A stretch of 64,000 nucleotides of DNA from an uncultured Acidobacteriaceae bacterium (GTDB lineage Bacteria; Acidobacteriota; Terriglobia; Terriglobales; Acidobacteriaceae), in assembly GCA_963846215.1 (NCBI GenBank), contig CAWJVC010000007.1, forward strand, positions 27,402 to 91,401. Reading direction: 5' to 3'. A model generated the notes under the pieces. That model did no database searches, was not told where the DNA came from, and saw only the letters and a program-made list of their open reading frames with translations. The translations under genes were made by a program, and so were the position numbers. Positions 1-27,201 of this stretch are shown in pieces. How positions within the stretch are numbered: the stretch's first letter is position 1; every line of letters starts with the position of its first letter.

Positions 1-1065
1 GCATACTTCTCGGCCGGCGGAATGCGAGGCTTCTATGCGCTCCCGCTCATCGACGACCAGGGGCGTCTCGGCATCCTGTCGTTTGAGAGCAGCGATCCCG
101 ACTTCCTCACCGTGGCGCATCTCGAAATCATTAAGGTGCTGGCCGGTCAGGCCACCGTCGCCTTGCGCAATGCGTCGCTCTATCGGGAAGTCCCGTTCAT
201 CAACCTTCTGGAACCCTTGCTGCAACGGAAGAAGCGTTTTCTCGCGATGGAAAAACGTCGGCGCGGATTCATGATCGCTCTTGCCGCTGCCGCGGGGCTT
301 TTCCTCATCTTTTGCCCATTGCCCATGCGCGTGGTTGGAGACGCTACCATAGCGTCGGCACGCTCTGCGCAAGTGTCCGCTGGCGTCGACGGCGTGGTCA
401 AAAGTGTATACGTCCGAGAGGGCGATTTTGTGAAGCAAGGGACCGTTTTAGCTGACCTTGAAGACTGGAACTACCGCGCAGACTTGGCCGCCGCCGAGGG
501 CAAGTACGAAGAAGCCGTTGCTACGATGAATCGCGCTCTGGCTCAAAATGACGGCGCTCTGGCAGGAACCGAGCGAGTCAAAGTGGACTACTCCCGAGCG
601 GAAGTGGACCGCGCTCGCGAACAATTGAAGCGCACATCTATTAAAGCCCCGTTTGACGGAGTCGTAACCACACCTCAGGTAGCGAATTCTGTCGGCCGCC
701 GCCTTGCGCACGGCGATACCTTCGCCGAAATCATCGAGATATCTCCCATCACCGCCGATGTTGCCATCCCAGAGGAAGATGCCACGTTGCTGCGGAGTGG
801 GGAACCAGCTTCCATCAAACTCGAGAGCTTTCCCCTGCGAACTTTTCGAGGCGACGTAACCCTCGTCAGTCCGCAAAGTCAGGTGGAGTCCGATCGGCAC
901 GTCTTTGTTGCCCGCGTCAGCGTTCCCAACTCGAACGGCGCAATCCGGCCCGGCATGCAGGGACAAGGGAAAGTGTCAGTCGGCTGGCATCCCGCCGGTT
1001 ACGTATTCTTCCGCGGCGCCGCCATGTGGGTCTGGGGAAAATTGTGGTCTTGGTTTGGGTGGTAG
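1..1065 (+). CDS. GAF-domain + HlyD-family membrane-fusion protein, 5' end outside window
   Basis: Frame 1 is open from base 1 (ORF track 22..1065). The sequence shows the end of a GAF-like fold (GILSFESSDPDFLT...ATVALRNASLY) and one hydrophobic helix (MIALAAAAGLFLIF). HlyD-type segments follow (VREGDFVKQGTVLADLED, IKAPFDGVV, IRPGMQGQGKV). Confidence 0.75.
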   Translation, partial: AYFSAGGMRGFYALPLIDDQGRLGILSFESSDPDFLTVAHLEIIKVLAGQATVALRNASLYREVPFINLLEPLLQRKKRFLAMEKRRRGFMIALAAAAGLFLIFCPLPMRVVGDATIASARSAQVSAGVDGVVKSVYVREGDFVKQGTVLADLEDWNYRADLAAAEGKYEEAVATMNRALAQNDGALAGTERVKVDYSRAEVDRAREQLKRTSIKAPFDGVVTTPQVANSVGRRLAHGDTFAEIIEISPITADVAIPEEDATLLRSGEPASIKLESFPLRTFRGDVTLVSPQSQVESDRHVFVARVSVPNSNGAIRPGMQGQGKVSVGWHPAGYVFFRGAAMWVWGKLWSWFGW

Positions 1066-1093
1066 CAAGATATTGGCTTTTGGGGAGCCCCTT

Positions 1094-2005
1094 ATGCCGA
1101 AATCCTATTCTCTCGTCCGCACTCTACTTGCAATCTGTGGGATAACACTTTCGCTTTGCGGCTGCAGCTCCAATCCTGTTGCCGCCGACGCGGCTGCTCC
1201 CCTCCCTTCAAAGCCTCCCGCCGAGGCGTCCAGTCAGAGTCAGCCGACTCCTTCGGACTACATCGCGTCTGGGCCCATCGTAGTCGAAAATCAAGTCGAG
1301 TTGGCTGCCCAGCGCGACGGCGTCGTGACGCAAGTCTTTGTGGAAGCCGGCGCGGCTGTAAAAAAAGGACAGATTCTGGCCCAACTCGATGACCGTCAGC
1401 TCACCGCCGAGAAGGATGCGGCCGCCGCTAAGGCTCGCAGCACGGACGCTGACCTTAAGAACTGGGAGGCAAGCGCCAGAGTTGCCCAATCGGCGCGCGA
1501 CCGCGCCGAACAATTATGGGCGGCGAACATCATCGCCAAATCCGAAGAAGAAAAAGCTAAGTATCAGTACGATGCTACCGAATTTGAGGTCGAGCGCCAA
1601 CGGGAGGACCTGCAACAATCGCAACAGACACTTCGATCTCTAGAACTCGAACTGGAGAAGACCAAAGTCACCGCGCCCTTTGACGGCGTCGTCGCCCGGC
1701 GCTATCTTCATGCCGGTCAGCAGGTCGCCAAGAATGATCATCTCTTCTGGATCTCGGCCGTCGCGCCCTTGCGCGTGAAATTTTCTCTTCCTGAAGCCTA
1801 CCTCGGCCGCGTGCGCAAGGGAACAGATCTGATTGTAGTCATGCCTTCCTCTCCTGGAGACATCCATCCCGCCAAGGTCATGCTCGTAGGCCCGGTCGTC
1901 GATCCTTCCAGCGATACGATTGACGTGACCGCAGAATTGCAAGGACCGACCGGCACATTGCGGCCGGGAATGACAGCCAATATCCGCCTGAAGAATCCTC
2001 AATGA
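1094..2005 (+). CDS. HlyD-family periplasmic adaptor, probable lipoprotein
   Basis: Internal ATG at 1094 with GGGGAG 7 nt upstream. N-terminus MPKSYSLVRTLLAICGITLSLCGCSS looks like a lipoprotein signal with a lipobox. It has a coiled-coil (TAEKDAAAAKARSTDADLKNWEAS...) and HlyD beta-barrel motifs (VTAPFDGVV, LRPGMTANIRL). Confidence 0.8.
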   Translation: MPKSYSLVRTLLAICGITLSLCGCSSNPVAADAAAPLPSKPPAEASSQSQPTPSDYIASGPIVVENQVELAAQRDGVVTQVFVEAGAAVKKGQILAQLDDRQLTAEKDAAAAKARSTDADLKNWEASARVAQSARDRAEQLWAANIIAKSEEEKAKYQYDATEFEVERQREDLQQSQQTLRSLELELEKTKVTAPFDGVVARRYLHAGQQVAKNDHLFWISAVAPLRVKFSLPEAYLGRVRKGTDLIVVMPSSPGDIHPAKVMLVGPVVDPSSDTIDVTAELQGPTGTLRPGMTANIRLKNPQ

Positions 2006-4146
2006 ATCTCGCCGAAGTCCTCAACGTCGCGCTTCCCGAGCTGCCGGCTCGCCGCATGAAGGGATATCCTCGGCTCCATCCCAAGCTGATCTCCGGCGAG
2101 CAGATGGAAGGCGGTGTCCCCACTGTGGTGGCGATGATCTCAGGAGACACCTCGGTATTCCGCTTCACCCCGGCCCAATGGAAGCTGGTCGAGTTGTTCG
2201 ACGGAGAACGGTCCTATCGCGAAATTGCAGAGATGTACTCGCAAAGGACTGGTTTCTACTACACCGAGGATGACATTCGGACCTTTTCCGACGGCCTCGA
2301 AGACGAAGGATTCTTCTACAAGACCTCCATCGAACTTAACATCACTGCCAGCCAGAAGCTCTCCGAAGAGCGCAAGAAGCGAGTACGGAAAAAGAAGATT
2401 GATCTGGCGGTCATGACATTTTCCACCTGGGATCCCGATGCGTTTCTCACCCGCCTGCACCACTCCGTCCGCTTTATCTATTCGAAATGGTTCACTCTCC
2501 TGACCTTGGGCGCTTTTGCGCTTATGTTCCTCATCTTTCTGAACGGATGGCGTGAGATCTCGCGAGATACCGTTGAGTATTACAGCTTTATCGACAAAGG
2601 AGCTGCCGACCTGGCGGAATTCTGGCTGCTATTTTTCGTGCTGGGATTCTTTCACGAATCTGCTCACGGACTGACCTGTAAACACTTCGGAGGAGCGGTG
2701 CACAGGATGGGATTCATGCTCATCTACCTGGAGCCAGCTTTCTTCGCCGACATCACCGAACTGTGGGTCTACGGTGGTAGGTGGCCGCGCGTAGCCGGCA
2801 TCATTGCCGGAATCTGGGTCGAGCTTATGTTCTGCGCCGTGGGGAGCATTGTCTGGTGGGGTACCCCAGCCGGAAGTCCCGTTCATGACTTTGCCTACAA
2901 GATCATGTTGATCACCGGCGTAGCCGTGATTCTGCTGAACCTCAACCCCTTGATGAAACTCGACGGCTATTATCTTTTGGCCGAATTAGTAGGTGTGACG
3001 GACTTGAAGGAGAGTTCTACCCAGTATCTCTCCAGTTGCGTGAAGCGCAAATGGTTCGGTTTGCCAGTGGAGATACCCTTCATTCCCCGTCGTCGCCGCT
3101 GGCTGTTTGCCAGTTATGCTGCCATCTCGGGTTTGTACAGCTACATAGTGCTGTTTGCCGCCGTAGATTTTTGCTATAACGTCTGCTCCCGTTTCAGCCG
3201 GGAATGGGCTTTCTTACCCGCGCTCGCGCTGGCTTTGACCATCTTTCGTTCCCGGCTGCGTTCACTCTGGAGATTTATGCGAGATTTCTATTTGGATAAA
3301 CAACAGCGAGTCCGGGACTGGTGGTCCAAGCCGCGTAAGGCTTTGGCCGCTGTCTTCGTCCTGCTCCTCCTGTTCGCACCGATTTGGCGAGAAACGGTTA
3401 CAGGGAAGTTCTTTCTTGCGCCGGAGCAGCGCTCAGTCATTCGCGCCACCGTCCCAGGAGAAATTACCAATGTCTACACCACCGAAGGAGCCTCGATCGC
3501 TGCTGGCGCCCCCGTGGTTCGCCTGCGAAGCCTTAGCCTGGAAGAGGATGCCGACAAATCCAAGTCGGATCTAACCACCGCCGAAGCAAACGCTCGTCAT
3601 GCGGAACTGTCCTATAACGACCTCGGGCAGGCGCGGGCCGAAAGGCTTTCTCAGCAAGAGCGCTATAACTCTGTGTCCAAACAAGTTGCAGCACTCCAGC
3701 TCTCCAGTCCCATTGCCGGGGTTGTTGTCACTCCCCGACTCCAGAGCTTGGTGGGTACCGTCGTTCAGGAGGGAACTGAGATAGCGGAAGTTGAGGGCGT
3801 CCAACGTCTTCAAGCGCGCATCTTTGTTCCCGAATTCCAAATCAGCAAGGTTGTACCGGGGGCGGAGGTCTCCCTGAAGTTGGAATCTTTTTTTAAGCCG
3901 ATTCGGGGACTGGTCGCCTCCGTGATGCCTGCATCGGAGAGCATTGCCGCTGGATTGCTGCAGCAAAAACAGTATGAGGGAACTGCGTCCCCAAAGTACT
4001 ACCTCGCTACGGTTTTAGTGTTCAACTCAGGCGGCCAACTGCGCCCCGGTATGTCGGGAGAGGCCAAAATCGCTGTCGTACGCAAGAGTATCGCGGAATT
4101 CGTAGGAAAGAACGTTCGTGAGTTTGTTCAGCGGAAACTCTGGTAG
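2002..4146 (+). CDS. Fusion protein: PqqD/RRE-like N-domain + M50 (site-2-protease type) zinc metalloprotease + HlyD-like C-domain
   Basis: The ATG at 2002 overlaps the upstream stop (ATGA). aa 40-106 resemble a PqqD-type winged helix (FRFTPAQWKLVELFDGERSYREIAEMY...DIRTFSDGLEDEGFFY). The multi-TM core carries HESAH (2653-2667) and NLNPLMKLDG (2938-2967). The C-terminal ~240 aa has a coiled-coil plus SSPIAGVV and LRPGMSGEAKI, as in HlyD. Confidence 0.8.
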   Translation: MNLAEVLNVALPELPARRMKGYPRLHPKLISGEQMEGGVPTVVAMISGDTSVFRFTPAQWKLVELFDGERSYREIAEMYSQRTGFYYTEDDIRTFSDGLEDEGFFYKTSIELNITASQKLSEERKKRVRKKKIDLAVMTFSTWDPDAFLTRLHHSVRFIYSKWFTLLTLGAFALMFLIFLNGWREISRDTVEYYSFIDKGAADLAEFWLLFFVLGFFHESAHGLTCKHFGGAVHRMGFMLIYLEPAFFADITELWVYGGRWPRVAGIIAGIWVELMFCAVGSIVWWGTPAGSPVHDFAYKIMLITGVAVILLNLNPLMKLDGYYLLAELVGVTDLKESSTQYLSSCVKRKWFGLPVEIPFIPRRRRWLFASYAAISGLYSYIVLFAAVDFCYNVCSRFSREWAFLPALALALTIFRSRLRSLWRFMRDFYLDKQQRVRDWWSKPRKALAAVFVLLLLFAPIWRETVTGKFFLAPEQRSVIRATVPGEITNVYTTEGASIAAGAPVVRLRSLSLEEDADKSKSDLTTAEANARHAELSYNDLGQARAERLSQQERYNSVSKQVAALQLSSPIAGVVVTPRLQSLVGTVVQEGTEIAEVEGVQRLQARIFVPEFQISKVVPGAEVSLKLESFFKPIRGLVASVMPASESIAAGLLQQKQYEGTASPKYYLATVLVFNSGGQLRPGMSGEAKIAVVRKSIAEFVGKNVREFVQRKLW

Positions 4147-4172
4147 GCAAGTTCTGGGAACGCAGTACACTG

Positions 4173-4212
4173 AAAAAGGAAAAGAGAGACCGGCTCCCCC
4201 AGCCAGTCTCTC
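4173..4212 (-). terminator. Intrinsic terminator of the repeat-peptide gene (possibly bidirectional)
   Basis: Hairpin GAGAGACCGGCT (4184-4195) / AGCCAGTCTCTC (4201-4212) with one mismatch and a 5-nt loop. On the minus strand it is followed by TTTTCCTTTTT. It sits between the convergent stops at 4146 and 4236. Confidence 0.7.
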
Positions 4213-4235
4213 CATATCCTTTCACGACAGGCGCC

Positions 4236-4535
4236 TTAAATTTTCTTGGCGGTCGTTACATTCGGTCCGCGCTTCGCGGTCGTGATATTCGGTCCACGCT
4301 TGGCAGTCGTGACATTCGGTCCACGCTTGGCAGTCGTTACATTCGGTCCGCGCTTGGCAGTCGTTACATTCGGTCCGCGCTTGGCAGTCATTACATTCGG
4401 TCCGCGCTTGGCAGTAGTTAGTCCGGGCTGTCCTTCGACGGCCTGGAGAGGTTGAGTGGAGGCTACGTTCGTCGCGATGATGGCCTTCTTGGCCGCCGAC
4501 AGGTTACCGATCAAGGATTTCTTCTGAATCGACAT
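4236..4535 (-). CDS. 99-aa basic tandem-repeat peptide (39-aa leader-like region + 6 x TTAKRGPN[V/I] + TTAKKI)
   Basis: The ATG at 4535 has GGAGGA 7 nt upstream, a GG-N10-GC promoter about 50 nt upstream, and a hairpin plus U-tract after the stop. Differences among the repeat units are mostly synonymous, which supports this strand and frame. Confidence 0.8.
   Translation of the reverse strand: MSIQKKSLIGNLSAAKKAIIATNVASTQPLQAVEGQPGLTTAKRGPNVMTAKRGPNVTTAKRGPNVTTAKRGPNVTTAKRGPNITTAKRGPNVTTAKKI
4239..4413 (-). repeat. 27-bp tandem repeat, 6 full units (4252-4413) plus a truncated unit (4239-4251), in-frame within the peptide ORF
   Basis: The unit is gtcgttacattcggtccgcgcttggca. Units 4333-4359 and 4360-4386 are identical, and the others differ at 1-3 positions. 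Confidence 0.95.
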
Positions 4536-4584
4536 TTTGTTTTCCTCCGTTTTAATTTCGTCCTTGCTACTCGGCTCTATCGTT

Positions 4585-4600
4585 AGCATCCTGCGTGCCA
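4585..4600 (-). promoter_or_regulatory. Sigma-54 (-24/-12) promoter of the repeat-peptide gene
   Basis: The minus strand reads TGGCACGCAGGATGCT. GG and GC are separated by exactly 10 nt and TGGCAC matches the -24 consensus. It is about 50 nt upstream of the ATG and directly downstream of a sigma-54 activator gene. Confidence 0.7.
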
Positions 4601-4711
4601 AAGTCGAACCACGTCAGCCCCAATTTCGAAAGGGAGCGATATCAGTCAGTTACGGGAAGTCGCGCTATAAGGAAGGGAAAAGCCTGGCCATTCAAATGTT
4701 TGGGGCGTATT

Positions 4712-4769
4712 AAATATTAATCTAGCGTGGATGATATTTTAATCCTTACCGAAGCCTAGATTAAAATTT
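4712..4769. promoter_or_regulatory. AT-rich inverted repeat, candidate enhancer (UAS) for the sigma-54 activator
   Basis: AAATATTAATCTAG (4712-4725) and CTAGATTAAAATTT (4756-4769) are inverted copies (13/14). A third related half-site, ATATTTTAATCC, lies at 4734-4745. The centre is about 165 nt upstream of the predicted start site. Confidence 0.35.
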
Positions 4770-6169
4770 CACGCTTTCCCTATCCCATACTTCCTGCAAA
4801 GGTAATGCATCTTCTGCTTGTCGACCTGCAGAAGGCGGGCCGCTCCGATTTTGCTTCCGTCCGAGCGCCGGAGCGCCGCCGTCAGGTATGCCACCTCGAT
4901 CTTTGCGATTTCCTCGTCAAAATTGACCCCACCGTCGGGAATCAGCATGGACTCCTGGCTGGTCGCGCTGCTGTAGATCAGGCGTTGCGGCAAGTGTTGG
5001 ACCTTAACCACCGGCCCATCGACCATCAGCACCAGCCGCTGCACCAGATTTTCCAGCTCTCGAACATTGCCCGGCCATGTGTCTTCCTCCAAAATATGTA
5101 TAACTTCCGGGTCCAACCGTTTTAAGGGAACTTTATTGGATTCGCAGTAAGAGCGCAGAAAATGGTCGAGCAGCAAAGGTACATCCCCGGGACGATCTCG
5201 CAGCGCCGGAAGAACGATCGGCACCACATTGATTCGGTAATACAAATCTTCCCGAAATCGTCCTGCCCGTACCAATCCTTCTAGATCCTCGTTGGTCGCC
5301 GCAATCAGGCGAAAGTCAATCTTCTTGGGAGTGTGCCCCCCGATCCGGGTTACCGCCCGATCTTCTAATACGCGCAGGAACTTCGCCTGCAACGCCAGTC
5401 CCAGAGTCGCAATTTCATCCAGCAGCAGCGTGCCGGTGTGCGCCATTTCGATGTGGCCAGCCCGGGCATTCCTCGCATCCGTGAACGCTCCCTTCTCATG
5501 GCCGAATAGTTCCGTCTCGATCAGGTTCTCCGGCAGCGCTGCGCAGTTAAGACTGACGAACGGCTTCTGCGCGCGCGACCCCAGAGCCACGATGGCCCGT
5601 GCCACCAGTTCCTTGCCGGTTCCGCTTTCTCCCCGGATCAGCACCGTGCTCGTGCTCTCGGCAACTCTCCGGATCGCCTCATAGACCCGCCTCATCGGTT
5701 CGCTGCCCCCGATCAACTCGCAGAACGATTCTCGTTCCACTTGCTCGTCCTGCCTCTGCCGGCACTCGATATCAAACGCGCGCTTTTCCAGCGACCGCCT
5801 TAGTACATCCCGCACTTCCTCAAAGTCGATGGGCGCCACAAAATATTCATCGACCTTGGCGGCGGCCGCCTGCAGGCGCAAATTGCGGCTACTCGACCGG
5901 GTCAGTCCTACAATCACCAGGTCCGGTTCCATCTTGCGCAGTTCGATCAGGGCGTCGATTCCATCCTGGCTGCGCTCGCCCACCGTGTCGAGATCTAGCA
6001 GCACAGCGTCCGGCGCGCGCTTGTGCATCGATACCGTCAGTTCATCCCAGGTCTCCAGCACGACGAGATCGTGCTCACTTGCCAGATAGGCCTCAGCCTC
6101 GGGCCTGACTCGTTCATCGGTCGTTACGATAACGACGGCGTATCGCTCTCCTTCTGTGCGTGGAGTCAT
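4769..6169 (-). CDS. Sigma-54-dependent response regulator (NtrC family enhancer-binding protein)
   Basis: It has a receiver-like N-domain (DAVLLDLD), an AAA+ core with GESGTGKE, a GAFTDA loop (GAFTGA variant) and RELENLV, and a C-terminal Fis-type HTH (AARLLQVDKQKMHYLCRKYGI). Confidence 0.9.
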   Translation of the reverse strand: MTPRTEGERYAVVIVTTDERVRPEAEAYLASEHDLVVLETWDELTVSMHKRAPDAVLLDLDTVGERSQDGIDALIELRKMEPDLVIVGLTRSSSRNLRLQAAAAKVDEYFVAPIDFEEVRDVLRRSLEKRAFDIECRQRQDEQVERESFCELIGGSEPMRRVYEAIRRVAESTSTVLIRGESGTGKELVARAIVALGSRAQKPFVSLNCAALPENLIETELFGHEKGAFTDARNARAGHIEMAHTGTLLLDEIATLGLALQAKFLRVLEDRAVTRIGGHTPKKIDFRLIAATNEDLEGLVRAGRFREDLYYRINVVPIVLPALRDRPGDVPLLLDHFLRSYCESNKVPLKRLDPEVIHILEEDTWPGNVRELENLVQRLVLMVDGPVVKVQHLPQRLIYSSATSQESMLIPDGGVNFDEEIAKIEVAYLTAALRRSDGSKIGAARLLQVDKQKMHYLCRKYGIGKA

Positions 6170-6464
6170 GGTCCCTCCCCTTTTGCGGCGGCCCCGATTA
6201 TGTCAAAAATTCGACCCTGCAGGATGAATTATTTATTCTTTTTTCTATCGTGTCAGTGCCCTCGTTGATCGTCATACCGAGCGGACGTTTTTGCGCAACG
6301 TGAAAGCTCGGCCGGCCGCGCGAAGCGGGGCGCTCTCTGCCACGCAATAGCCGGGCATTTGGCTCGTTTCCCGATCAAACGGAGCCGCTCCCAACCCTGT
6401 ATGTACTTGCAAAACCCCGCTCGTTCCCGTAACTTTGGACGCATTCTATCGTCATGCTTCATGC

Positions 6465-6803
6465 ATGACGCCCGGTCCTGCGGAGGAGAGTTTGGACATC
6501 AACGTCCGGAAACGTTCACAAGTGCAGTTGATACAGCTGCGGGGCGCGCTTCGCATGGGGCCTGCCGTCGATACTCTGCGCCAAACCCTGGAGGAGGCCA
6601 TCGCCAATGGGGATACCAACATTGTTATGAACCTGTCGGAAGTTCCCATGGTGGATTCCAGCGGAATTGGCTTGCTGGTGCGCCATCTCGCCTTGATTAA
6701 GCAGAAGGGTGGAAATATCAAGCTGGCGCAGCCCTCTAAATTCGCCGTGCAGACCTTGCGTCTGGTGGGCGTTTTGAACCTGTTTGAGATCTTCGACGAA
6801 TGA
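6465..6803 (+). CDS. STAS-domain anti-sigma-factor antagonist (SpoIIAA/RsbV-like)
   Basis: The motif MVDSSGIGLLV carries the conserved phosphorylatable Ser, and the size is about 112 aa. The start could also be the TTG at 6435. Confidence 0.8.
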   Translation: MTPGPAEESLDINVRKRSQVQLIQLRGALRMGPAVDTLRQTLEEAIANGDTNIVMNLSEVPMVDSSGIGLLVRHLALIKQKGGNIKLAQPSKFAVQTLRLVGVLNLFEIFDE

Positions 6804-6873
6804 CGACTCGGCAGTGGAATCTTTCGCTTAAATCAGATCTCCATGCTTAAAATCGAGAACACTATGAGCCCCT

Positions 6874-7314
6874 ATGTCCGCTGAGTGTGGAAGTAACCCG
6901 GAAAACAGCTCTTTGTCGGAGTTGCTCGACCTGAGCGTTCCCGCCGATTCCGAGGCGATTGCCGCCGTCGTCGATACCGTCTCCGAAACCTTGGAGCGCC
7001 TGCAGGTCCCAGAGCAGAAGCGCTTTGAAATCGCCTTGGCTGTGCAGGAAGCCTTAGCCAACGCAGTCGTCCATGGATGCGGCAACGATCCTGCAAAACA
7101 AGTTCGTTGCCAGTTAAAATCTGACCCACAGGGCCGAATTCTGATTAGCGTCGCCGACCCCGGTCCCGGTTTCAGCCCGGATGTCGTCCCCGACCCTAAG
7201 CGTCGCGAGAGTGTTTATGCCGATCATGGCAGAGGCGTTTACCTCATCCGCCAGCTTATGGATGAGGTTCACTTCGAGCGCAGCGGCAGCGAAATCCGCA
7301 TGTGGAAATATTAG
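6874..7314 (+). CDS. Anti-sigma regulatory factor, Ser/Thr kinase (RsbW/SpoIIAB-like, HATPase_c)
   Basis: N-box-like EALANAVVHG, G1-box DPGPGF, and GRGVYLIRQLMDEV. It sits immediately downstream of the STAS gene. Confidence 0.8.
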   Translation: MSAECGSNPENSSLSELLDLSVPADSEAIAAVVDTVSETLERLQVPEQKRFEIALAVQEALANAVVHGCGNDPAKQVRCQLKSDPQGRILISVADPGPGFSPDVVPDPKRRESVYADHGRGVYLIRQLMDEVHFERSGSEIRMWKY

Positions 7315-19201: not shown

Positions 19202-21580
19202 TTGTTTAGAATAGGGGATTCGTCTAACCTTGGCAGGGGATTCTTGCGCTGGACGAAATTTGCCTTGGAACAGTCCAATCACAAATCCGACGAGTCGGTT
19301 CGAACGGCGCCAACGGTTTATTGGCGCGTAGAAGGCAGCCTGCTCGATCTCACGGTGGTGAAGCCGGTAGCCTTCTTCACCTGGAACGCTCAGACATTTT
19401 CGGAGCGCTTTCGGCGGCGAGGGCTAATTTTCCTAATGGCGGTGCTGCGTCCTTTTCTTTACTCCACCAATCGGAAGTTCGCGACACGGGTGGTGCATAC
19501 GGCGTTACGGGGGGTAACGCGCGATCGACTGGATCTGCTGGGCGAAGAATATTTCCAGTACAAACTAAAGCCCCAGTTGAAGGCGCGGGGAGTGGAGCGC
19601 GTGCAGGAATTGGTGCGCTCAGGTGCGGATGTGGTGCTGGTCAGCCAGGGACTCGAGCACGTGATGAAGCCTTTGGCGTTGCATCTGGGGGTGAAGCGCA
19701 TCGTTGCAAACCGCCTGGAGTTTCGCGATGGGGTGGCGACCGGAAGGTTGCTGGAGCCGATCATTCGTCCGCGCGGGGCGTTCGCGCCGATTCGCGACCA
19801 AAGTCCCGATGGACGGCGGGCTCCGAAGACGTTGGCTCGGCAATTGGATATCACACTGGAAGAATTGAAGGCCGCGGTGATTGAGTCCGAGCGGGAGTCG
19901 CCGGCGCAGGAACGCCCAATTGTTCATTTCGAAGGCAAGCTACAGGAAGCGGGATTTTCAGTACGACGGGCGCTGGCGGATAAGCACGTGATGTTGATCG
20001 GCGTTACCGGGTTTATCGGGAAGGTGTGGCTGGCCAATACGCTGATGCAATTGCCGAAGATCGGTCGAATTTATTTGCTGATCCGGCGGCAGAAATCGAA
20101 TCCGGCGCAGCGGCGGTTTGAAAAAATTGTAGAGGAGTCGCCAGTCTTCGACCCGCTATTCGAGAAATATGGAATTGGGCTGGCGGAATATTTGCGAGAA
20201 AAAGTTGAGGTGGTTGAAGGGGACGTCACGCGCGAAGAGTTAGGACTGGATGCGGAAGTGGCCAGACGGCTGAAGAGAAATCTGGACTTGGTCATCAATA
20301 GTTCGGGATTAACGGACTTCAATCCTGACTTGCGGGATGCCCTAGCGACCAATACAGACGCGGCGATGAACATTCTGGAATTTCTGCGCGCGACGGATCA
20401 TGCGGGTTTACTGCATCTCTCTACATGCTATGTGGCAGGAGAGCGGGACGGACGTGTACCGGAGAAGGTGATCCCAAATTACACGCCGCATCACGTAGCG
20501 AATTTCGACGCCGAGCAGGAGTGGCGGTCGCTGCAGGAATTAATCGCGAAGGCGGAGGCGAAGGCGGAGGGCGCGGATGTTACGGCGGACTTGCGATCGC
20601 AATCGCTGGCCAAGGAACATGCGTCGAAGGCTTTACAGGGCGCGGCGTTGGAAAATCAGATTCGCAAGAACCGGATTCGCTGGCTGAAGACGTACCTGAC
20701 AGACGAAGGAACGAGGCGTGCCAAGGAATTGGGCTGGCCGAATACTTATACGCTGACGAAGAGCCTTGCGGAATCGCTGATTGTGAAGTATGGCAAAGGG
20801 TTGCCGATTGCCGTGGTACGTCCGGCGATTGTAGAGACTTCGGTGGCCAAGCCGTTCCTGGGCTGGAATGAGGGCATCAATACATCGGCATCCCTCTCGT
20901 ATCTGCTGGGGACATATTTCCGACAGTTGCCCTCGAACGAGAGCAAGCGGCTGGACATTATTCCGGTGGATGCGGTCTGCGACGGAATGACGCTGATTGC
21001 GGCCGCGATTGTGGAGCGGCGGCACGATGAGTTGTATCAGCTGGCGACCTCGGCGACGAATCCTTGTGATATGGGGCGGTCGATTGAGCTGACATCGCTG
21101 GCGCACCGTAAACATTATCGGGCGCAGGAAGGCCTGGAATCATGGCTACGGCTGCGATTCGATGCGATTCCAGTGTCGAAGACGCGCTATCAGCGGATGT
21201 CTGCGCCAGCGCAGAAGGCGATTGTGAAATCGATTCAGCGGATTATGGCTCCGCTTCCTCTGAAAAAGACTCCGCTGGTGAAAGCGGAGAGAAGTCTGGA
21301 GCGGCTGGAAAAGTTAATTGAATTATTTGAGCCGTTCATCCTGTTCAATGAGCACGATTTTGCAGCGGACAATGTGGAAAAATTATCGCATGCGCTGGTC
21401 GAGGACGAGCGGGACGAATTTGGCTACAAGGCTCGCTTGCTGGACTGGTGGGATTACTGGATCAACGTGCATATTCCGGCGTTGCGAAAGTGGACGTATC
21501 CTTTGATCGAAGGCAGGCCGCTGGAAGCGCGTCCGGCGCGGAGTTTGGAGAATGGGGAGACGGTGAAGACTGGAACTTAG
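19202..21580 (+). CDS. Fusion: degenerate HAD-IB-like domain + fatty acyl-CoA/ACP reductase (NAD_binding_4 + FAR C-terminal domain)
   Basis: Rossmann motif GVTGFIGKVWL, active-site region STCYV...YTLTK, and a long FAR-type C-terminal domain. The N-terminal ~220 aa is HAD-like (VLVSQGLEHVMKPLALHLG). The start codon is uncertain (TTG at 19202 in the ORF track). Confidence 0.8.
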   Translation: MFRIGDSSNLGRGFLRWTKFALEQSNHKSDESVRTAPTVYWRVEGSLLDLTVVKPVAFFTWNAQTFSERFRRRGLIFLMAVLRPFLYSTNRKFATRVVHTALRGVTRDRLDLLGEEYFQYKLKPQLKARGVERVQELVRSGADVVLVSQGLEHVMKPLALHLGVKRIVANRLEFRDGVATGRLLEPIIRPRGAFAPIRDQSPDGRRAPKTLARQLDITLEELKAAVIESERESPAQERPIVHFEGKLQEAGFSVRRALADKHVMLIGVTGFIGKVWLANTLMQLPKIGRIYLLIRRQKSNPAQRRFEKIVEESPVFDPLFEKYGIGLAEYLREKVEVVEGDVTREELGLDAEVARRLKRNLDLVINSSGLTDFNPDLRDALATNTDAAMNILEFLRATDHAGLLHLSTCYVAGERDGRVPEKVIPNYTPHHVANFDAEQEWRSLQELIAKAEAKAEGADVTADLRSQSLAKEHASKALQGAALENQIRKNRIRWLKTYLTDEGTRRAKELGWPNTYTLTKSLAESLIVKYGKGLPIAVVRPAIVETSVAKPFLGWNEGINTSASLSYLLGTYFRQLPSNESKRLDIIPVDAVCDGMTLIAAAIVERRHDELYQLATSATNPCDMGRSIELTSLAHRKHYRAQEGLESWLRLRFDAIPVSKTRYQRMSAPAQKAIVKSIQRIMAPLPLKKTPLVKAERSLERLEKLIELFEPFILFNEHDFAADNVEKLSHALVEDERDEFGYKARLLDWWDYWINVHIPALRKWTYPLIEGRPLEARPARSLENGETVKTGT

Positions 21581-21647
21581 GCTTCGGCCAGTTGCGTGGC
21601 GCAGAGCTCTTTCGACTTCGCACAGAAAAAGGGAACGGAATTATTGA

Positions 21648-22778
21648 ATGGCGATATTTTTGACGGGATCGACGGGATACATTGGGGCGCATGTGGCGGC
21701 AAACCTGCTGCGTGACGGCGCCGCGCTGAATGTGCTGGTGCGGGCGGCGGATGTGGGCGAGGCGGAAGCGAGGCTGTGGCAGGCGCTGCAGTTGCATTTG
21801 GAGTTCCCGCAGTTCTACGAGTACTTGCAAACGCGGGTGCGGGTTTTTCGGGGAGATCTGACGGATCCAGGATTTGGGTTGGGTCGAGATGAATATGATC
21901 GGCTCGTGCATACGACCGACTCCGTGATTCATTGTGCGGCATCGCTGAATCGCAAGTCCGAGAAGAGTTGTCTGAATGTGAATCTGCGTGGAACCCTGGA
22001 AGTGCTGACGCTGGCCCGGCAAGCCGAGCATTATCATGGACTGAGTCGCTTCAGCCTGGTCAGTACGGTGGCGGTGGCAGGGAAGCGGGAGAACGAGGTG
22101 GTCAGCGAAGACCGATCGATTGACTGGAATCGCTCGGATTACGATCCTTATGCGCGAACAAAAAAATTCAGCGAACATATGATGCGAGTGTTGTTGCCGG
22201 AAACGCCGAAGACGATTTTCCGGCCCAGCATCGTTCTGGGTGACAGTCGATATGCAGAGACCACCCAGTTCGATATGGTGAAGGCTTTTGTGTTTCTGGC
22301 TGGACTGCCGGTGCTGCCGTTTCGTGCGACGGACAAGATCGATATTGTGAATGTGGATTTTGTGGCCGACGCGATCTCAACTCTGCATCAGAAGGAGCAT
22401 CCGCAATTCGACACCTATCACCTTTCGTCGGGAAGGGAATCCCAGACATTTCGAGAGATTACGAAGGCATTAGCGACGTCGCAGAATAAACGGGCGCCGG
22501 TTTTTGTTCCCGTGGCAGAACGTCCATTTGCAGGGTCGGTGAATTTTCTAGCGAATCGCAAAGGGTCCGTCGGGAAAGGCGCGTCGCTGATGAAGGTTTT
22601 CATGCCATATCTGGTGTGGAACACGGTTTTCGATAATACGAGAGTGACCACTGAGTTGGGAAAGAAGCCGGTACCATTTTCAGAGTACTGCTATCCCCTG
22701 CTGAAATTCAGCACGGAGAATCATTTCGAATACAAATATCGACCGTGGCCCGCGGCGGTGGGAGGGTCGGCGGCATGA
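21648..22778 (+). CDS. SDR-family NAD-dependent reductase (thioester-reductase/epimerase-like)
   Basis: [19 protein letters not shown], and YARTKKFSE provides the YxxxK motif. Confidence 0.8.
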
Positions 22779-24184
22779 TGGATTTTGTTCTAGAGGCATG
22801 GGTGAGCAGTTCGATCGAGCGCGCCAAGGCGTCGTGGATGTTGGGCGGGGGCAAGCGCTGGCAGCCTGGGCAGAAATTGAAGTTGCTTTTTGCGGGCTAT
22901 AACGGAACGCGAAATATGGGCTCGGATGTTCGCGTGGAAGAAATGTTGCGCCAGATTCGTCACATTCTGGGTGCGGAGCGGGTGGAATTCAGCGTGATGA
23001 GCCAGAATTTCGATTTCTCGCGCGGATACTTTGAAGGAACGAGGCAGGTGCATCTGCCTGACATTTTTCCACCATTTCTAGCGCACGAAGTGCCGCAGCA
23101 CGATGGAGTGGTGGCGTGCGAAGGATCGATGTTCAAAAGCAAGTTTGCCAATGCGCTGACCACGATGATGATTGGCTCGCTCGGAATTGCGGCGGCCCAA
23201 AATAAATTGTCTGTGGGGTATGGAGCTGAAGCGGGACACATGGATCCGCTGGTGGCGAAGATGTGTGCGCGCTATTGCAAGAGTTCCTTCGTAATTACGC
23301 GCAATGAGGAGTCGCGCGGAGTGCTGCGCGAGTTGGGTGTACCGACGGAACTAGGAACGGATACGGCTTGGACGTTCGAGCCTCGTCCGCCAGAGTACGG
23401 ACAGAGCGTGCTGAGAAAAGTTGGCTGGGACGGTAAGACGCCGGTGCTGGTGGTGTGTCCGATTAATCCATTTGAGTGGCCGGTGAAGGCGTCAGTGGCG
23501 AAGTACGCGTTGCGGAGTCTGACAGGAGTTTATAAGGACAGCCACTACCGGACGGTCTATTTTCACAATTCGGGTCCGGCCGCCAAGCAGGCATATCAGA
23601 AATATTGGACTTCGATTGCCAATGCGGTCGATGCCTTCCGCAAAAAGAAAAATGTTTTCGTAATTCTGGCCGCTACGGAGCGTCTGGATGCGCGTCCGGC
23701 TCACCGCATTTCCGAGAAGCTGGGCGGGGTGCCGGTTCTGACTTCCGACGATTACAGCATGTATGAACTGGTGAGCGTGCTGCGGGCTTGCCACATGATG
23801 GCATCGTCGCGGTATCACGGGATCGTGACGTCGATGCCGGGGTTGGTGCCATCAGCGGGGATCACGATGGACGAGCGGATTCGCAATTTGATGCGGGAAC
23901 GGGGGCATCAGGATTTACTGATGACGGTAGATGATCCGGAACTGGAAGGAAAGTTATTAGCTGCGCTGGAGAAATTGAGTCGCGAGGGAGAGGCGATCGC
24001 GACTGGTATCGCGCGGACGGTAGTGAAGAATTTAAAGGTGATGGCGCGCATGGGAGTTTATTTCGAGGAAGAAGTGCGAAGAAGATATCCGGAGTTTGAA
24101 ACCCGGCGCGGAGAGTGGAGTTGGGAGGATTATTTGCCGCCCATGAGTAGAGGCTTGCAGGAATTAGTGGCGGCTTATAACTAG
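22775..24184 (+). CDS. Polysaccharide pyruvyl-transferase-family protein
   Basis: The ATG overlaps the upstream stop (ATGA). [22 protein letters not shown] and [13 protein letters not shown] resemble the PS_pyruv_trans signature regions. Confidence 0.6.
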
Positions 24185-24223
24185 CGGCATCAACTCCTTC
24201 AATACAAATTCCTGTTCAGGTTT

Positions 24224-25894
24224 GTGAATACGACACTTCCATTTATCGGAGACATTTTTGCCCAACTGCAGAGGGCCGCGGATAGGCGGATTCTTGCCGA
24301 AATCCGCGATGGGCAGGTAACAGGCGTCACCGGAAGCGAGCTGCTGGAGCTGATCCGCAGAGCGCGGACTTTTATCGCGTCAAAGGGATTGAAAAAGGGT
24401 GACCGGTGCGGACTGCTCGCCGCCAACAGCATTCGCTGGGTAGCAATGGATTTGGCGCTGATGGCAGAGGGACTGATTGTGGTGCCTCTTTATTCGCGGC
24501 AAGCACCCTCGGAACTGGTGGCAATGATGAAAGACTGCACGCCATCGATGCTGTGTTGCGGAGAGGCAGGGCTACGAGATGGAATCGTGCAGGCTTGGGG
24601 TGAAGCGCCTCCACAGTTTTTATTCGACGAGATTTTTGCAGGTGTAGACGGTGTGCAGTTGGAGCGGCCGCAGGTAGGGAATGACGATCCGGTCGCGGTT
24701 ATCTATACCTCGGGAACTTCGGGTGAAGCTAAGGGAGTAGTACTGACAGCGGGGAATGTTGGATTCATGCTGGACCGGACGGCGGAGCGTTTGGACGCTT
24801 TGATGGCCGCTGCGGCGCGCGCCGAGGGCCAGGATCAAATCTTTCACTATTTGCCATTTACGTTTGCGGCGTCGTGGATTGCGTTGCTGACTTTTTTGAA
24901 GCGGCGGAGCCTGGTGACGATCAACATGGATCTGACCAAGATCGCGAGCGACATGCGAACGGTGGCACCAGACTATTTCTTGAACGTCCCGCAACTGTTG
25001 GAGCGTATGAGACGCGCGGTAGACGAACAGTTGTGGCAGACGGGCGGTGTGGCGCAAGCCATTTATTCGCGCGCTAAAGCGGCCTGGGTTCGAAAACAAG
25101 AGAAGCAATCTAAACCCGGGGACGCGTTGTGGCTGGGCCTGGCAAATCGCCTGGTATTTCCGGCAATCCGGAAGAAAATGATCGGCAAAAATCTGCAGGC
25201 GCTGATTTGCGGGTCGGCGCCACTGAGCGCTGAGACACAACTTTATTTCATGATGCTGAGCGTGCGTGTTCTGCAAGTGTACGGTCTGACGGAAACGACA
25301 GCGATCTGCACGATGGATGATCCGAACCAGGTTGAGGTGGGACGAGTGGGACCGGCGATTGCGGGAATGGAAATGCGGCTTGGGGAGAATGATGAAATCC
25401 TGGTGCGCGGACCCAATATTTTTCGGGAATACTGGAATCGCCCGGAGCAAACCGCTGAAGCCTTACGGGATGGATGGTTTCACACGGGAGATCAGGGTGA
25501 AGTGGATGCGTCGGGAAATTGGCGGATCGCGGGGAGGATCAAGAATCTGATTGTTCTTGGGTCAGGGCACAAGATTTCGCCGGAGCCGATCGAGAATACG
25601 ATTGCGAAACTCTTGCCAGAGGCGCAGCAAGTGGTGGTGGTGGGGAATGGACGTGGATACCTGTCGGCGCTGGTGACGGGGACTGTGACAGAGGAAAGAG
25701 TAAAAGCCGTCCTCGATGCGGTGAACCCGAATTTGGCGCATTACAAGCAGGTGCGGGCCTTTTGTGTGCTGCCGCAAGCCTTCTCGGTTGAAAATGGCGC
25801 ACTGACGGTGAACGGGAAGTTGAAGCGCGATGTGATTTCAGCGCGAACGAAAAATGAAATCGAAGACATGTACCGCGTGAAGCAAGCGGTGTAG
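24224..25894 (+). CDS. AMP-dependent synthetase/ligase (long-chain acyl-CoA or acyl-ACP synthetase type)
   Basis: IYTSGTSGEAKGVVLT, YGLTET, WFHTGDQG, and GKLKR at the C-terminus. Confidence 0.88.
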   Translation: MNTTLPFIGDIFAQLQRAADRRILAEIRDGQVTGVTGSELLELIRRARTFIASKGLKKGDRCGLLAANSIRWVAMDLALMAEGLIVVPLYSRQAPSELVAMMKDCTPSMLCCGEAGLRDGIVQAWGEAPPQFLFDEIFAGVDGVQLERPQVGNDDPVAVIYTSGTSGEAKGVVLTAGNVGFMLDRTAERLDALMAAAARAEGQDQIFHYLPFTFAASWIALLTFLKRRSLVTINMDLTKIASDMRTVAPDYFLNVPQLLERMRRAVDEQLWQTGGVAQAIYSRAKAAWVRKQEKQSKPGDALWLGLANRLVFPAIRKKMIGKNLQALICGSAPLSAETQLYFMMLSVRVLQVYGLTETTAICTMDDPNQVEVGRVGPAIAGMEMRLGENDEILVRGPNIFREYWNRPEQTAEALRDGWFHTGDQGEVDASGNWRIAGRIKNLIVLGSGHKISPEPIENTIAKLLPEAQQVVVVGNGRGYLSALVTGTVTEERVKAVLDAVNPNLAHYKQVRAFCVLPQAFSVENGALTVNGKLKRDVISARTKNEIEDMYRVKQAV

Positions 25895-25920
25895 TTGAAA
25901 CGGAATTAGTTGCGAAGAAT

Positions 25921-26760
25921 ATGACGGTAAAAGAAGGAAAATCCGGCGCCGGGTTGGGAAGCTCTTGCGGCGGCACAGCTCTGTCCTGGACGGTCACGGA
26001 CGGGGTGATTGAACTGGCATTGCACCGCGCGCCTTGCAACGAATTGGGGTCCACGTCTCTGGAGCAATTGGAAATTTTCGTGACGGCTTTAGAGAGTATG
26101 CAAAGAGACGCGCACGCTCTCATTATCTATAGCGAGATGAAGCCGGGATTCTGCGCAGGTGCGGATTTACGCGAACTCTATCAGCGATCGCAGGCGATGG
26201 AAAAAGTTGAAGCGGCGCGGGGGGTTCGTGACTTTCTGGAACGCATTCACCGCGTGCTGAATGTGATCGACGCTGCTCCCCTGACCACGATTGCGGCCGT
26301 GCACGGCGTCACATTCGGGGGAGGATTTGAGTTAGCGCTGGCTTGCGATTTAATTATTGCCGACAAGATGGCACGATTTTGTTTTCCGGAACTGAGGTTG
26401 GGATTGATTCCGGGATTTGGCGGAATTCCGCGCTTGAAGCGCGACCTTGGCAATGCCGTGGTGAGGGACCTTTTGCTTACGGGGCGGAGTTTCAATGCGG
26501 CAAAGGCGCAGCAGATTGGACTGGTTAGTCAGGTGGTGGGCGAGGGTGAAGCCTTGCGAGCGGCGCGGGGAACAGCCGCGCAATTGAAGAAATTCGATAG
26601 GGCTACGGCGGCAGCAGCAAAACAATTTATCAAACCGATCCCGCATGAGGAGTTGCGGCGCGAGATTGATCTTTTTTGCGAATTGTTTGCCAAGCCGGCT
26701 GTCGAAGCTGGACTGCGTAAGTTTGTGGAGAGCGCAGACGCGCAACCTTACTTGCCGTAA
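25921..26760 (+). CDS. Enoyl-CoA hydratase/isomerase (crotonase) family protein
   Basis: FCAGADLREL, AAVHGVTFGGGFELALACDLIIA and FPELRLGLIPGFGG. Confidence 0.88.
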   Translation: MTVKEGKSGAGLGSSCGGTALSWTVTDGVIELALHRAPCNELGSTSLEQLEIFVTALESMQRDAHALIIYSEMKPGFCAGADLRELYQRSQAMEKVEAARGVRDFLERIHRVLNVIDAAPLTTIAAVHGVTFGGGFELALACDLIIADKMARFCFPELRLGLIPGFGGIPRLKRDLGNAVVRDLLLTGRSFNAAKAQQIGLVSQVVGEGEALRAARGTAAQLKKFDRATAAAAKQFIKPIPHEELRREIDLFCELFAKPAVEAGLRKFVESADAQPYLP

Positions 26761-26797
26761 GGAGTAGTAAGCGGCGGGTGGCGACCGCGAGTAGAGT

Positions 26798-26824
26798 GAA
26801 TCCTTCGCTTCGCTCAGGATGACA
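26798..26824 (-). repeat. Short interspersed repeat head (GTCATCCTGAGCGAAGCGAAGGATTC)
   Basis: It is related to the gtcattccgaacggc... heads at 12.5-13.4 kb and lies in the 92-bp gap between the crotonase and ACP genes. A 12-nt fragment, gtcatcctgagc, also occurs at 8423-8434. Confidence 0.6.
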
Positions 26825-26852
26825 TGGCATTGAGGGAAGCACAGAACATTTT

Positions 26853-27095: not shown

Positions 27096-27201
27096 CCAAA
27101 ATCGTCCATTGTTGATTGCAGATTCCAGATCGATTCTTGCAGTTGCGCACAAACCTGAGTTGTGAATCGCCAATCGTCACTCTACAATCAGCAATTCTCT
27201 T

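Follow-up and report, generated by a model that had tools for sequence, protein, structure and literature searches.

A locus at the start of a 64,000-nt stretch of DNA from an uncultured Acidobacteriaceae bacterium (contig CAWJVC010000007.1; the whole stretch is called the window here, and coordinates refer to it unless a locus label is given) combines three genes for HlyD-type periplasmic adaptors, a convergent small gene made of a conserved leader and tandem repeats, and the gene of a sigma-54 enhancer-binding response regulator. One of the adaptors is a 714-amino-acid (aa) fusion that begins with a PqqD-like leader-binding domain of the RRE type (RiPP recognition element, RiPP being a ribosomally synthesised and post-translationally modified peptide) and continues with an M50 intramembrane metalloprotease. 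On the strength of sequence comparison, it is fairly probable that the locus encodes a system for the leader-guided processing and export of a ribosomal peptide, with no tailoring enzyme and no ABC ATPase. Its main features are as follows; labels of the form L0xx denote flanked homologue loci and those of the form P0xxx denote peptides.

1..1065, plus strand: gene 1, 3' part of a gene for a GAF-GAF-GAF / transmembrane / HlyD-type periplasmic adaptor (Pfam GAF tail; HlyD_D23, 6.8e-28), cut by the window edge
1094..2005, plus strand: gene 2, lipoprotein-type HlyD/RND_mfp periplasmic adaptor, 303 aa (TIGR01730, 2.2e-49; HlyD_D23, 2e-23)
2002..4146, plus strand: gene 3, 714-aa fusion of an RRE (PqqD-like) domain, an M50/site-2-protease membrane domain and HlyD (NF041824, RND_mfp, AlphaFold2 model)
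4236..4535, minus strand: candidate precursor peptide gene, 99 aa, convergent with gene 3 and 89 bp past its stop codon
4455..4535, minus strand: conserved leader MSIQKKSLIGNLSAAKKAIIATNVAST, residues 1-27 (alignment of 40 distinct leaders)
4245..4420, minus strand: tandem array of TTAKRGPNV units, 6.5 x 27 bp (Tandem Repeats Finder score 282, 91% matches)
4586..4601, minus strand: sigma-54 type -24/-12 promoter TTGGCACGCAGGATGC (GG-N10-GC), read from the sequence, 51 nt upstream of the peptide ATG
4769..6169, minus strand: sigma-54 enhancer-binding response regulator with receiver, AAA+ domain and HTH_8 (Pfam and NCBIfam)

A first-pass annotation of this DNA had described three tightly coupled co-directional genes, a repeat open reading frame (ORF) on the other strand, its GG-N10-GC promoter and an adjoining sigma-54 activator. 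All of these were recovered in place, including the ATGA overlap between genes 2 and 3, and the ORF was found to comprise 99 aa, with 39 non-repeat residues and 6.5 units of 9 aa.

The small gene and its repeats

The 99-aa peptide has 18 K/R residues and a single D/E residue, which gives a net charge of about +17. It ends in ...TTAKKI, no transmembrane or Sec-type segment was found in it, and a GGAGG ribosome-binding site stands ahead of its ATG. Its array is the strongest tandem repeat that Tandem Repeats Finder reported in the 64-kb window, and a dibasic KR closes each unit.

A motif search across the flanked loci returned 76 small ORFs that bear the leader, the window's own included, with the consensus M-[SAT]-[IV]-Q-K-K-S-L-I-x-N-x-x-A-x-K-K-A-I-x-A. 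Among the 40 distinct leaders, M1, K5, K6 and L8 are invariant, and S7, I9, K17, A18 and A21 are kept in at least 90%. When a 42-aa leader profile was used for searching, 565 predicted proteins were matched; those with a source name are all labelled 'hypothetical protein', and the named organisms all belong to Terriglobales or Sulfotelmatobacter. The cores that follow the leader are unrelated between species, and include GLQTAKHP x15, TLAKG x12, VELGKR x9, LSGGKG x20, NLGGK, LDATKR, PAVAR, AKT and AKV. At least three tandem copies are present in 56 of the 76 peptides, with units of 3-18 aa and about one K/R per 3-6 residues. Copy number varies even among close relatives, as with TLAKG, which occurs 3 times in P0122 and 12 times in L011/L014. 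A subfamily of peptides lacking repeats has a conserved KANSLTAQSMK motif and a basic amphipathic tail.

Selection on the repeats was assessed in arrays defined purely at the DNA level, and an amino-acid-defined version was dropped because it was biased by the choice of arrays. In all 48 DNA-defined arrays of the family the period is a multiple of 3. The single-base differences between units within arrays comprise 474 synonymous and 48 nonsynonymous changes, against 156 synonymous changes expected under random change, and codon position 3 holds 457 of the 522. Since the differences are almost all synonymous, the identical peptide units are held by purifying selection within arrays and are not merely the outcome of fresh DNA slippage. 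The position of the arrays is equally specific: of 76 loci, 53 have a repeat-coding region downstream of the M50-HlyD gene at a distance of no more than 1.3 kb, and the other 1.44 Mb of flanking DNA holds one such region. Therefore, a chance pairing of the repeat ORF with the fusion gene is excluded.

These data also bear on whether the small ORF is a gene at all. The array might instead be repetitive DNA or RNA without coding function, or the ORF might have arisen by chance, as the exact 99-aa product has no record in the assembly collection and the ORF gave no Pfam or NCBIfam match; a search for transcription via short contigs of an abundant homologue brought back only genomic contigs. Against this stand the array periods and the synonymous excess, the third codon positions of the leader, which are its most variable ones, the ribosome-binding-site-like motif that precedes all 76 family genes, and the recurrence of the leader, as amino acids, in the 565 predicted proteins. 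A non-coding origin is thus hardly credible.

Two further loci with leader-bearing genes were noted. L082 (5510-6198; also L083) is an orphan two-peptide locus far from any M50-HlyD operon, with products beginning MSVQKKSLVSKK... and MSIQKKSLISNRQAVKKALIAS...KANSLTAQSMK.... At L037 (12224-12645) the leader and a PVLSKT x12 repeat lie in different frames, the leader reading PSRRNRSS in the frame of the repeat, which is either an assembly frameshift or a slippage-inactivated allele.

Conservation of the gene order in Terriglobales

When genomes were scanned for relatives of the 714-aa protein, at least 565 species genomes proved to have one, and the comparison uses 80 loci, each with its 10-kb flanks. 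Among the candidates scored, 1699 homologues were found at E <= 1e-10, and the best 120 of these, all from Terriglobales, are 58-76% identical to the window protein and of the same length. The order GAF-HlyD, HlyD, RRE-M50-HlyD, convergent small ORF and sigma-54 activator recurs in about 70 of the 80 species-level Terriglobales genomes, in which the fusion protein is 43-76% identical. The GAF-HlyD gene is kept in 79 of the 80 loci and the gene 2 adaptor in 78. The activator is convergent to the M50-HlyD gene in 71 and follows it after 470-890 bp, a gap that nearly always holds a convergent small ORF. One peptide, P0129, was met in the same gene context in many metagenome assemblies. The first-pass annotation had asked whether small tandem-repeat ORFs and sigma-54 activators recur beside such fusions; an absence of co-occurrence was decisively not seen, and the pairing is near-universal in Terriglobales.

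Gene 1 is represented in the window by the C-terminal 354 aa, with one hydrophobic helix at residues 89-107. The full protein, found on another assembly contig, has 799 aa with GAF and adaptor domains, and a 799-aa orthologue shows three GAF stretches plus HlyD. The product of gene 2 has a hydrophobic N-terminal segment with LSLCGC at its end, as in lipoproteins. A continuation of the system upstream of base 1 had been one of two options in the first-pass annotation; nothing conserved was found there. Likewise, the lack of a visible tailoring enzyme, ABC ATPase or immunity gene in the window extends to the family: within +/-10 kb of the 80 loci, no conserved ABC, RND, MFS, TolC, radical-SAM, YcaO, LanM or immunity gene was found, and no second protease is conserved at the locus.

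At three loci (L013, L015 and L020), the place of the activator and the peptide is taken by a protein of 179-200 aa, in which the N-terminus is Cys-rich and an XRE-like helix-turn-helix (HTH) is present.

The RRE-M50-HlyD fusion protein

The domains of the 714-aa protein were placed as follows.

2062..2325, plus strand: RRE / PqqD-like leader-binding domain, residues 21-108 (three strands then three helices, pLDDT 75-91)
2434..3381, plus strand: M50 intramembrane metalloprotease domain (motifs, hydrophobic helices, pLDDT 80-96)
2653..2667, plus strand: HESAH, residues 218-222 (HExxH motif)
2938..2967, plus strand: NLNPLMKLDG, residues 313-322 (NxxPxxxxDG motif)
3382..4146, plus strand: C-terminal periplasmic adaptor (HlyD) domain with alpha-hairpin (Foldseek, and profile against the PDB)

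The N-terminal half matches the NCBIfam model NF041824 (daptide_HExxH) over residues 23-387, nearly the full model length, with E 5.9e-43 and 147.4 bits (cut-off 300), and the RRE region aligns with the N-terminus of this daptide RRE-peptidase profile. The match to the YydH/LiaK-type model NF058609 is weak (4.2e-8; 33.2 bits vs a cut-off of 225). H218, E219, H222, N313, P316, D321 and G322 are invariant in 61 sequences, down to 20% identity with the window protein. In the C-terminal part, RND_mfp was matched at 1e-17 over residues 472-695. By Foldseek, the adaptor domain is most similar to MexA, AcrA and MacA (about E 1e-15), and the profile against the PDB gave MacA at 7.6e-29. An AlphaFold2 model built on the 61-sequence alignment has a mean pLDDT of 83.5 and consists of an RRE, a helical membrane domain and the adaptor, in that order. 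In an earlier model built from 14 close sequences, the pLDDT of the membrane domain was below 50.

The PqqD-like and M50 domains had been named in the first-pass annotation. In the window protein itself, Pfam gave no PqqD or Peptidase_M50 match at E <= 0.01. When the 61 family members were scanned with Pfam one by one, HlyD was found in 61, Peptidase_M50 in 54 and PqqD in 10; the metagenomic homologue at L121 reaches 25.7 bits for PqqD, above the cut-off of 23.4. A sequence search of the PDB with the family profiles A1 and A5 returned adaptors only, with no S2P or PqqD match, and Foldseek with both full-length models gave a top 50 made up entirely of MFP adaptors, the M50 and RRE folds being unmatched. 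No PDZ or CBS domain was found in the fusion family by Pfam. Thus the two assignments are supported at the family level, by NCBIfam, the motifs, the homologues and the predicted structure, and not by the window sequence alone.

Relatives beyond the Terriglobales

An exhaustive search with residues 1-460 of the fusion (E <= 0.001, clusters at 50% identity) showed that the RRE-M50 part is represented by about 9,650 clusters (9650) from several phyla. Many of these are proteins of 680-760 aa with 23-35% identity, that is, the same fusion. Named relatives come from Blastocatellia, Bdellovibrionota, Candidatus Magnetomorum, Methylomirabilis, Nitrospiraceae, Gemmataceae and Verrucomicrobia. A Blastocatellia-type locus has three adaptor genes, a convergent 141-aa ORF, and then an activator and a kinase. 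In the 141-aa ORF, a leader of another kind, MAEKKEVTIKLTEEQRRQVKQATGKDI..., is combined with eight acidic repeats of 13 aa, RANPLAIGAEETA; a second locus of this type has RANP-delimited units. In more distant homologues, ORFs with an ...EELEERIAP leader lie directly upstream of the fusion gene and are co-directional with it. Their cores are G/N/P/Q-rich or are repeats such as ATQATH x10 and NGYEGQPGNQG x2, and no activator was detected in these loci. Verrucomicrobial and other cores are also G/N/P/Q-rich. OEP/TolC genes lie inside the cluster at L085 (Bdellovibrio) and L086 (Magnetomorum).

Because the distant loci pair a leader-bearing small gene with the fusion gene when no activator is detected, the small genes track the RRE-M50-HlyD gene and not the activator alone, and each clade has its own leader family. 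Such clade-specific leaders are what RRE-dependent recognition would predict. The question of whether the pairing extends to other phyla, raised in the first-pass annotation, is thereby answered: Blastocatellia, Verrucomicrobia and other lineages show the pairing too, with leaders of unrelated sequence.

The diversity of the cores is relevant to the possibility that the peptide is an intracellular polycation similar to histone H1 or AlgP, which is controlled by sigma-54 and binds DNA, RNA or polyphosphate, and that its adjacency to the HlyD genes has nothing to do with a role as their substrate. The Terriglobales cores, with one K/R per 3-6 residues and almost no acidic residues, would fit, and units of the PAVAR, APAKA and AAVRPKVS type resemble H1/AlgP tails. 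However, acidic Blastocatellia-type cores and G/N/P/Q-rich cores adjoin the same machinery, and charge is therefore not the common property. In addition, the conserved leader would be left without explanation, and the peptide genes stay with the RRE-M50-HlyD gene at loci in which no activator was detected. A polycation of this kind is accordingly considered very unlikely.

Some of these relatives have features of their own. The EELEERIAP-leader loci are L108, L115, L121 (903-1792), L143 (1505-1804), L153, L163, L164 and L168 (5781-5933); L121 carries three such genes in tandem, and no daptide tailoring genes were seen near any of these loci. At L167 (3967-5934), in a Gemmataceae metagenome-assembled genome, a SecA-like ATPase of 655 aa (SecA_DEAD, SecA_PP_bind, P-loop_SecA) is encoded immediately upstream of the M50-HlyD homologue, after a GAF-adaptor gene and a WD40 gene. 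In the planctomycete version, this ATPase may supply the motor that is otherwise missing.

Probable sigma-54 control and possible signalling partners

The regulatory region and the adjoining genes contain the following additional features.

4184..4212: G+C-rich hairpin between the convergent genes, inverted repeat GAGAGACCGGCT / AGCCAGTCTCTC (12 nt, 92% complementary, 5-nt loop), probably a bidirectional terminator
4712..4769: A+T-rich palindromes, inverted repeats 4712-4725 / 4756-4769 and 4732-4744 / 4759-4771
6435..6803, plus strand: SpoIIAA/RsbV-like STAS protein with a DSSGIG motif, divergent from the activator (Pfam STAS, 5e-14)
6874..7314, plus strand: RsbW/SpoIIAB-like serine kinase (HATPase_c_2, 5.8e-28)

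The promoter of the peptide gene is conserved in the family. The motif GTTTGGCAC-N5-TTGC[TA] lies 60-110 nt upstream of 66 of the 76 peptide genes, compared with 5% of shuffled upstream sequences. At loci with two peptide genes, the second gene has no sigma-54 promoter. The activator contains Sigma54_activat (4.2e-67), AAA_lid_14 and HTH_8 by Pfam, and its loop reads GAFTDA, which is of the GAFTGA type. With 29.9 bits, its receiver domain narrowly misses the Pfam cut-off (30.2); 67 orthologues retain the acidic pocket and the phospho-acceptor Asp. The Lys of the receiver K-P motif is replaced by Ala in the window lineage (FVAPID) and is Lys elsewhere (FLKPVD, FRKPVD), the phospho-acceptor Asp being retained. 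The palindromes abut the stop codon of the activator gene, about 110-170 bp upstream of the promoter, and are probably binding sites of the activator. In most lineages 2-3 copies of GGTTAA-N3-TTAACC stand at the equivalent site, and the group of the window has a GATTAA...TTAATC variant. The orphan L082 peptide locus carries both elements as well, with its own copy of the palindrome and a TGGAAC-N5-ATGC promoter, and it is probable that the activator controls a small regulon of such peptides.

Ahead of the GAF-HlyD operon, a conserved sigma-54 promoter was not found: only 8 of 76 loci reach the threshold (a score of at least 17 of 21) in the 330-nt upstream region, and the only control, 5% in 160-nt regions, is not matched to that length. 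The sigma-54 control proposed in the first-pass annotation is therefore supported for the peptide gene, and not for the HlyD operon.

A STAS gene was found in about 64 of the 80 loci, either beside the activator or divergent from the GAF-HlyD gene, and an RsbW-like kinase gene in about 22. The STAS and RsbW-like proteins likely form a partner-switching module; it is adjacency only that suggests a link of this module to the peptide system, and its target could be the activator, sigma-54 or the GAF-adaptor. Partner-switching genes accompany the system in several lineages (window 6435-7314; L084 14224-16238; L081), with an FHA-GAF-SpoIIE phosphatase added at L084. A sensor kinase linked to the locus was found in none of the Terriglobales, and one is adjacent in the Blastocatellia-type L084. 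The window does contain a large hybrid sensor kinase at 47434-50931 on the minus strand (GAF, HisKA, HATPase, receiver, PAS, HisKA_3 and a second HATPase), 41 kb from the activator, and nothing marks it as the cognate kinase.

M50/site-2 proteases such as RseP and SpoIVFB classically act in signalling, and the genes just described invite an explanation along the same line. The RRE-M50 protein may destroy a small cytoplasmic or membrane-peripheral regulator as a feedback switch, with the activator, the STAS/RsbW module or the GAF domains as targets, while the HlyD assembly does efflux or envelope work. The classical role of these proteases, the STAS, RsbW-like and (in L084) SpoIIE-like genes that accompany the locus, the GAF sensor domains fused to an adaptor, and the operon's lack of a sigma-54 promoter of its own would all agree with such regulatory proteolysis. 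However, for a regulator that touches conserved partners, one would not expect a core that differs entirely between close species and is nevertheless identical from unit to unit. Moreover, the fusion of a protease to a TolC-docking adaptor, together with the OEP genes of other phyla, fits export best, and the nearest characterised relatives process secreted peptides. Regulatory proteolysis is thus considered an unlikely explanation, although not as unlikely as the polycation.

Proposed mechanism

The export system favoured here may work as follows. The response-regulator activator would bind the palindromes just past its own stop codon and fire the sigma-54 promoter, which would drive the small gene only. 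The product would consist of a conserved 25-27-aa leader and a species-specific core of identical tandem units, strongly basic in Terriglobales. The cytoplasmic RRE domain of the 714-aa protein may then capture the leader, and the M50 domain may remove it at the inner membrane. The core would enter a periplasmic tunnel made of the fused HlyD domain and the two HlyD paralogues, one a lipoprotein and the other with three cytoplasmic GAF domains, and would exit via an outer-membrane channel of the TolC type encoded elsewhere. Gating or signal input might plausibly be supplied by the GAF domains and by the STAS/RsbW module. Several parts of this scheme are inferred, namely the binding of the leader, its cleavage and the cleavage site, translocation and the energy that drives it, the use of TolC, any cutting of the core into single units, and the role of the product, which might be a signal, an antimicrobial peptide or a matrix polycation. 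The export step is suggested by the homology of the adaptors to TolC-docking proteins, by the OEP genes of relatives, by the lack of a Sec or transmembrane segment in the peptide and by the precedent of the protease EpeP.

Several observations weigh against this proposal. M50 proteases are not established translocons, and no inner-membrane transporter or ATPase is conserved at the locus and no motor is encoded there; a TolC gene was not found either among the large ORFs of the window that were scanned. The score of the fusion against NF041824 is below the cut-off, and the window protein itself stays below the Pfam thresholds for PqqD and M50. The HlyD operon has no conserved sigma-54 promoter, which leaves its co-regulation with the peptide unproven. 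The operon is also kept without activator and peptide at L013, L015 and L020, and leader peptides occur away from the operon at L082. Finally, 20 of the 76 members, about a quarter, have fewer than three repeat copies, some having none, and units of 3 aa are implausibly short as discrete products.

The last two points concern the fate of the core. In the first-pass annotation, the peptide was taken for a multi-core precursor cut into several identical short peptides. This idea gains from the finding that identical units are under purifying selection, and the KR at the unit ends in the window also speaks for cutting into units; it loses from the members with fewer than three copies and the 3-aa units. 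The 3-aa units, the repeat-less members and the lack of a second protease at the locus are against unit cutting or neutral on it; units this short would suit a periodic polymer no less than a multi-copy pheromone. Alternatively, the whole repeat region may be released uncut, as a secreted periodic polymer with a role as an envelope coat, a ligand of exopolysaccharide or a cationic antimicrobial. The range of units (3-18 aa) with a roughly constant K/R spacing, the basic amphipathic tail retained by non-repeat members, and again the lack of a conserved second protease are in line with a polymer, but the strict identity of the units under selection and the dibasic KR in the window fit multi-copy release equally well. 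Such a polymer is regarded as possible, if rather doubtful.

The most far-reaching version of the export proposal is that the RRE-guided intramembrane protease, fused to HlyD adaptors that dock TolC and surrounded by them, serves as the inner-membrane gate of a new secretion route of diderm bacteria that has no ABC, RND or MFS motor, and releases from one precursor many identical copies of a short, species-specific peptide, as extracellular signals that feed back via the two-component sigma-54 activator. This is a speculative scheme, less probable than the uncut polymer. If it is true, it would represent a Gram-negative counterpart of the peptide-pheromone circuits of Gram-positive bacteria, widespread in soil Acidobacteriota and present in several other phyla.

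Other features of the window

Scanning of further large ORFs of the window showed housekeeping or lipid genes with no relation to the locus, and neither a transporter nor a TolC-family gene. Two fatty-acyl reductase-like genes (NAD_binding_4; one with HAD and Sterile domains) lie within 19202-29853, in a cluster with a pyruvyl-transferase-like gene, two AMP-binding ligases and a DAGK/YegS-like kinase. This cluster looks like a lipid or wax-type pathway, with no apparent relation to the peptide system. The only other sizeable tandem repeat of the window (55729-55814; 21-bp unit x4) encodes GGGGGYP x4 in the minus-strand ORF 55476-56222, and appears to have no relation to the peptide system either.

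Significance

Acidobacteriota are among the most abundant soil bacteria, and to our knowledge almost nothing is known about their communication and competition. The family described here is large, with the fusion protein in at least 565 species genomes and 565 peptide clusters matched by the leader profile, and its members have been annotated merely as 'hypothetical protein' or 'HlyD family adaptor'. A fusion of protease and adaptor without a transporter is mechanistically unusual, and it is found in a dominant soil phylum; identical tandem units under selection are a rare precursor architecture in bacteria. If the proposed mechanism is true, it would couple the removal of a leader with passage through two membranes in a new way, with no ABC transporter involved. 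The products would form a new class of ribosomal peptides whose cores are identical tandem units kept by selection, and peptide signalling or antagonism among Gram-negative soil bacteria would have a candidate open to direct testing. The conserved leader is a simple handle for genome mining, and the cultured strains Granulicella sp. S190 and Tunturibacter empetritectus M8US30 carry the system.

Comparison with known systems

RseP and SpoIVFB share with the fusion the HExxH and NxxPxxxxDG motifs in a polytopic membrane domain. Unlike these site-2 signalling proteases, the fusion has no PDZ or CBS domain, and its candidate substrate has no transmembrane segment and is not a membrane-anchored anti-sigma or pro-sigma factor. 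In the promoter region, the -24 GG and -12 GC elements with 10-nt spacing, the AAA+ domain, loop and HTH of the activator, and the putative sites upstream are as in a sigma-54 regulon. A conserved leader and a variable core stand beside an RRE-containing protein, as in RiPP loci, but no conserved core-modifying enzyme was found at the locus. If there is no unlinked enzyme, the product would be an unmodified, proteolytically matured peptide.

Peptide-pheromone circuits such as ComC/ComAB/ComDE and the Eep-processed enterococcal pheromones place the precursor gene beside a processing or export machine and a dedicated response regulator, and multi-copy precursors include yeast alpha-factor and the multi-core microviridins (PMC5934393). 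The window system resembles them in its conserved leaders, species-specific mature parts and identical tandem copies. It differs from the pheromone circuits in that no kinase is linked to it in Terriglobales, the activator is of the sigma-54 type, and the units are as short as 3 aa.

In the type I secretion of bacteriocins and microcins by C39-ABC transporter, HlyD and TolC, leader removal is coupled to one-step export, as proposed here for the window system, and a conserved leader, a variable core and an HlyD-family adaptor are common to both. In contrast, the window system has no ABC transporter, C39 domain or double-glycine leader; it has an intramembrane metalloprotease fused to an adaptor, and three adaptor paralogues. 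Compared with tripartite export systems in general, the three HlyD/MFP adaptor genes are present, whereas no gene for an energised inner-membrane transporter (ABC, RND or MFS) is conserved within +/-10 kb.

The epipeptide systems YydFGHIJ and EpeXEPAB also use an M50 membrane protease (YydH/EpeP) to mature a small ribosomal peptide, and EpeP is thought to both cleave and export its peptide (PMC10885120). The protease of the fusion is homologous to the M50 enzymes of both epipeptides and daptides, and homologues of the fusion carry the JGI label 'putative peptide zinc metalloprotease protein', of the YydH type. Unlike the epipeptide systems, the window locus has neither a radical-SAM epimerase nor an ABC transporter, and has HlyD domains and a Gram-negative envelope.

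The daptides are also close. In the daptide peptidase, which is proposed to remove the leader, an N-terminal RRE is joined to an intramembrane site-2 protease, and the daptide leader logo is ELExMEAP (PMC10028931). The fusion shares the RRE and M50 architecture of daptide MpaP, a small gene with a conserved leader adjoins the protease in both systems, and the EELEERIAP leader of the distant HlyD-fused relatives resembles the daptide logo. Unlike the daptide system, the window system has a sub-cut-off score, an added C-terminal HlyD domain, a diderm host, sigma-54 control and tandem-repeat cores, and its peptide has an MSIQKKSLI leader and lacks the C-terminal Thr. None of the daptide tailoring genes (DUF-RRE MpaB, oxidative decarboxylase, aminotransferase, methyltransferase) is near the window locus or conserved within +/-10 kb.

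A literature search for the fusion, the operon and the leader motifs found no description beyond the daptide paper and a protease review, which agrees with the earlier impression that this is not a described family. The system is a member of none of the known systems compared. Judged by its sequence, the 714-aa protein at its centre is related to the daptide leader peptidase, with a MexA/MacA-like adaptor added.

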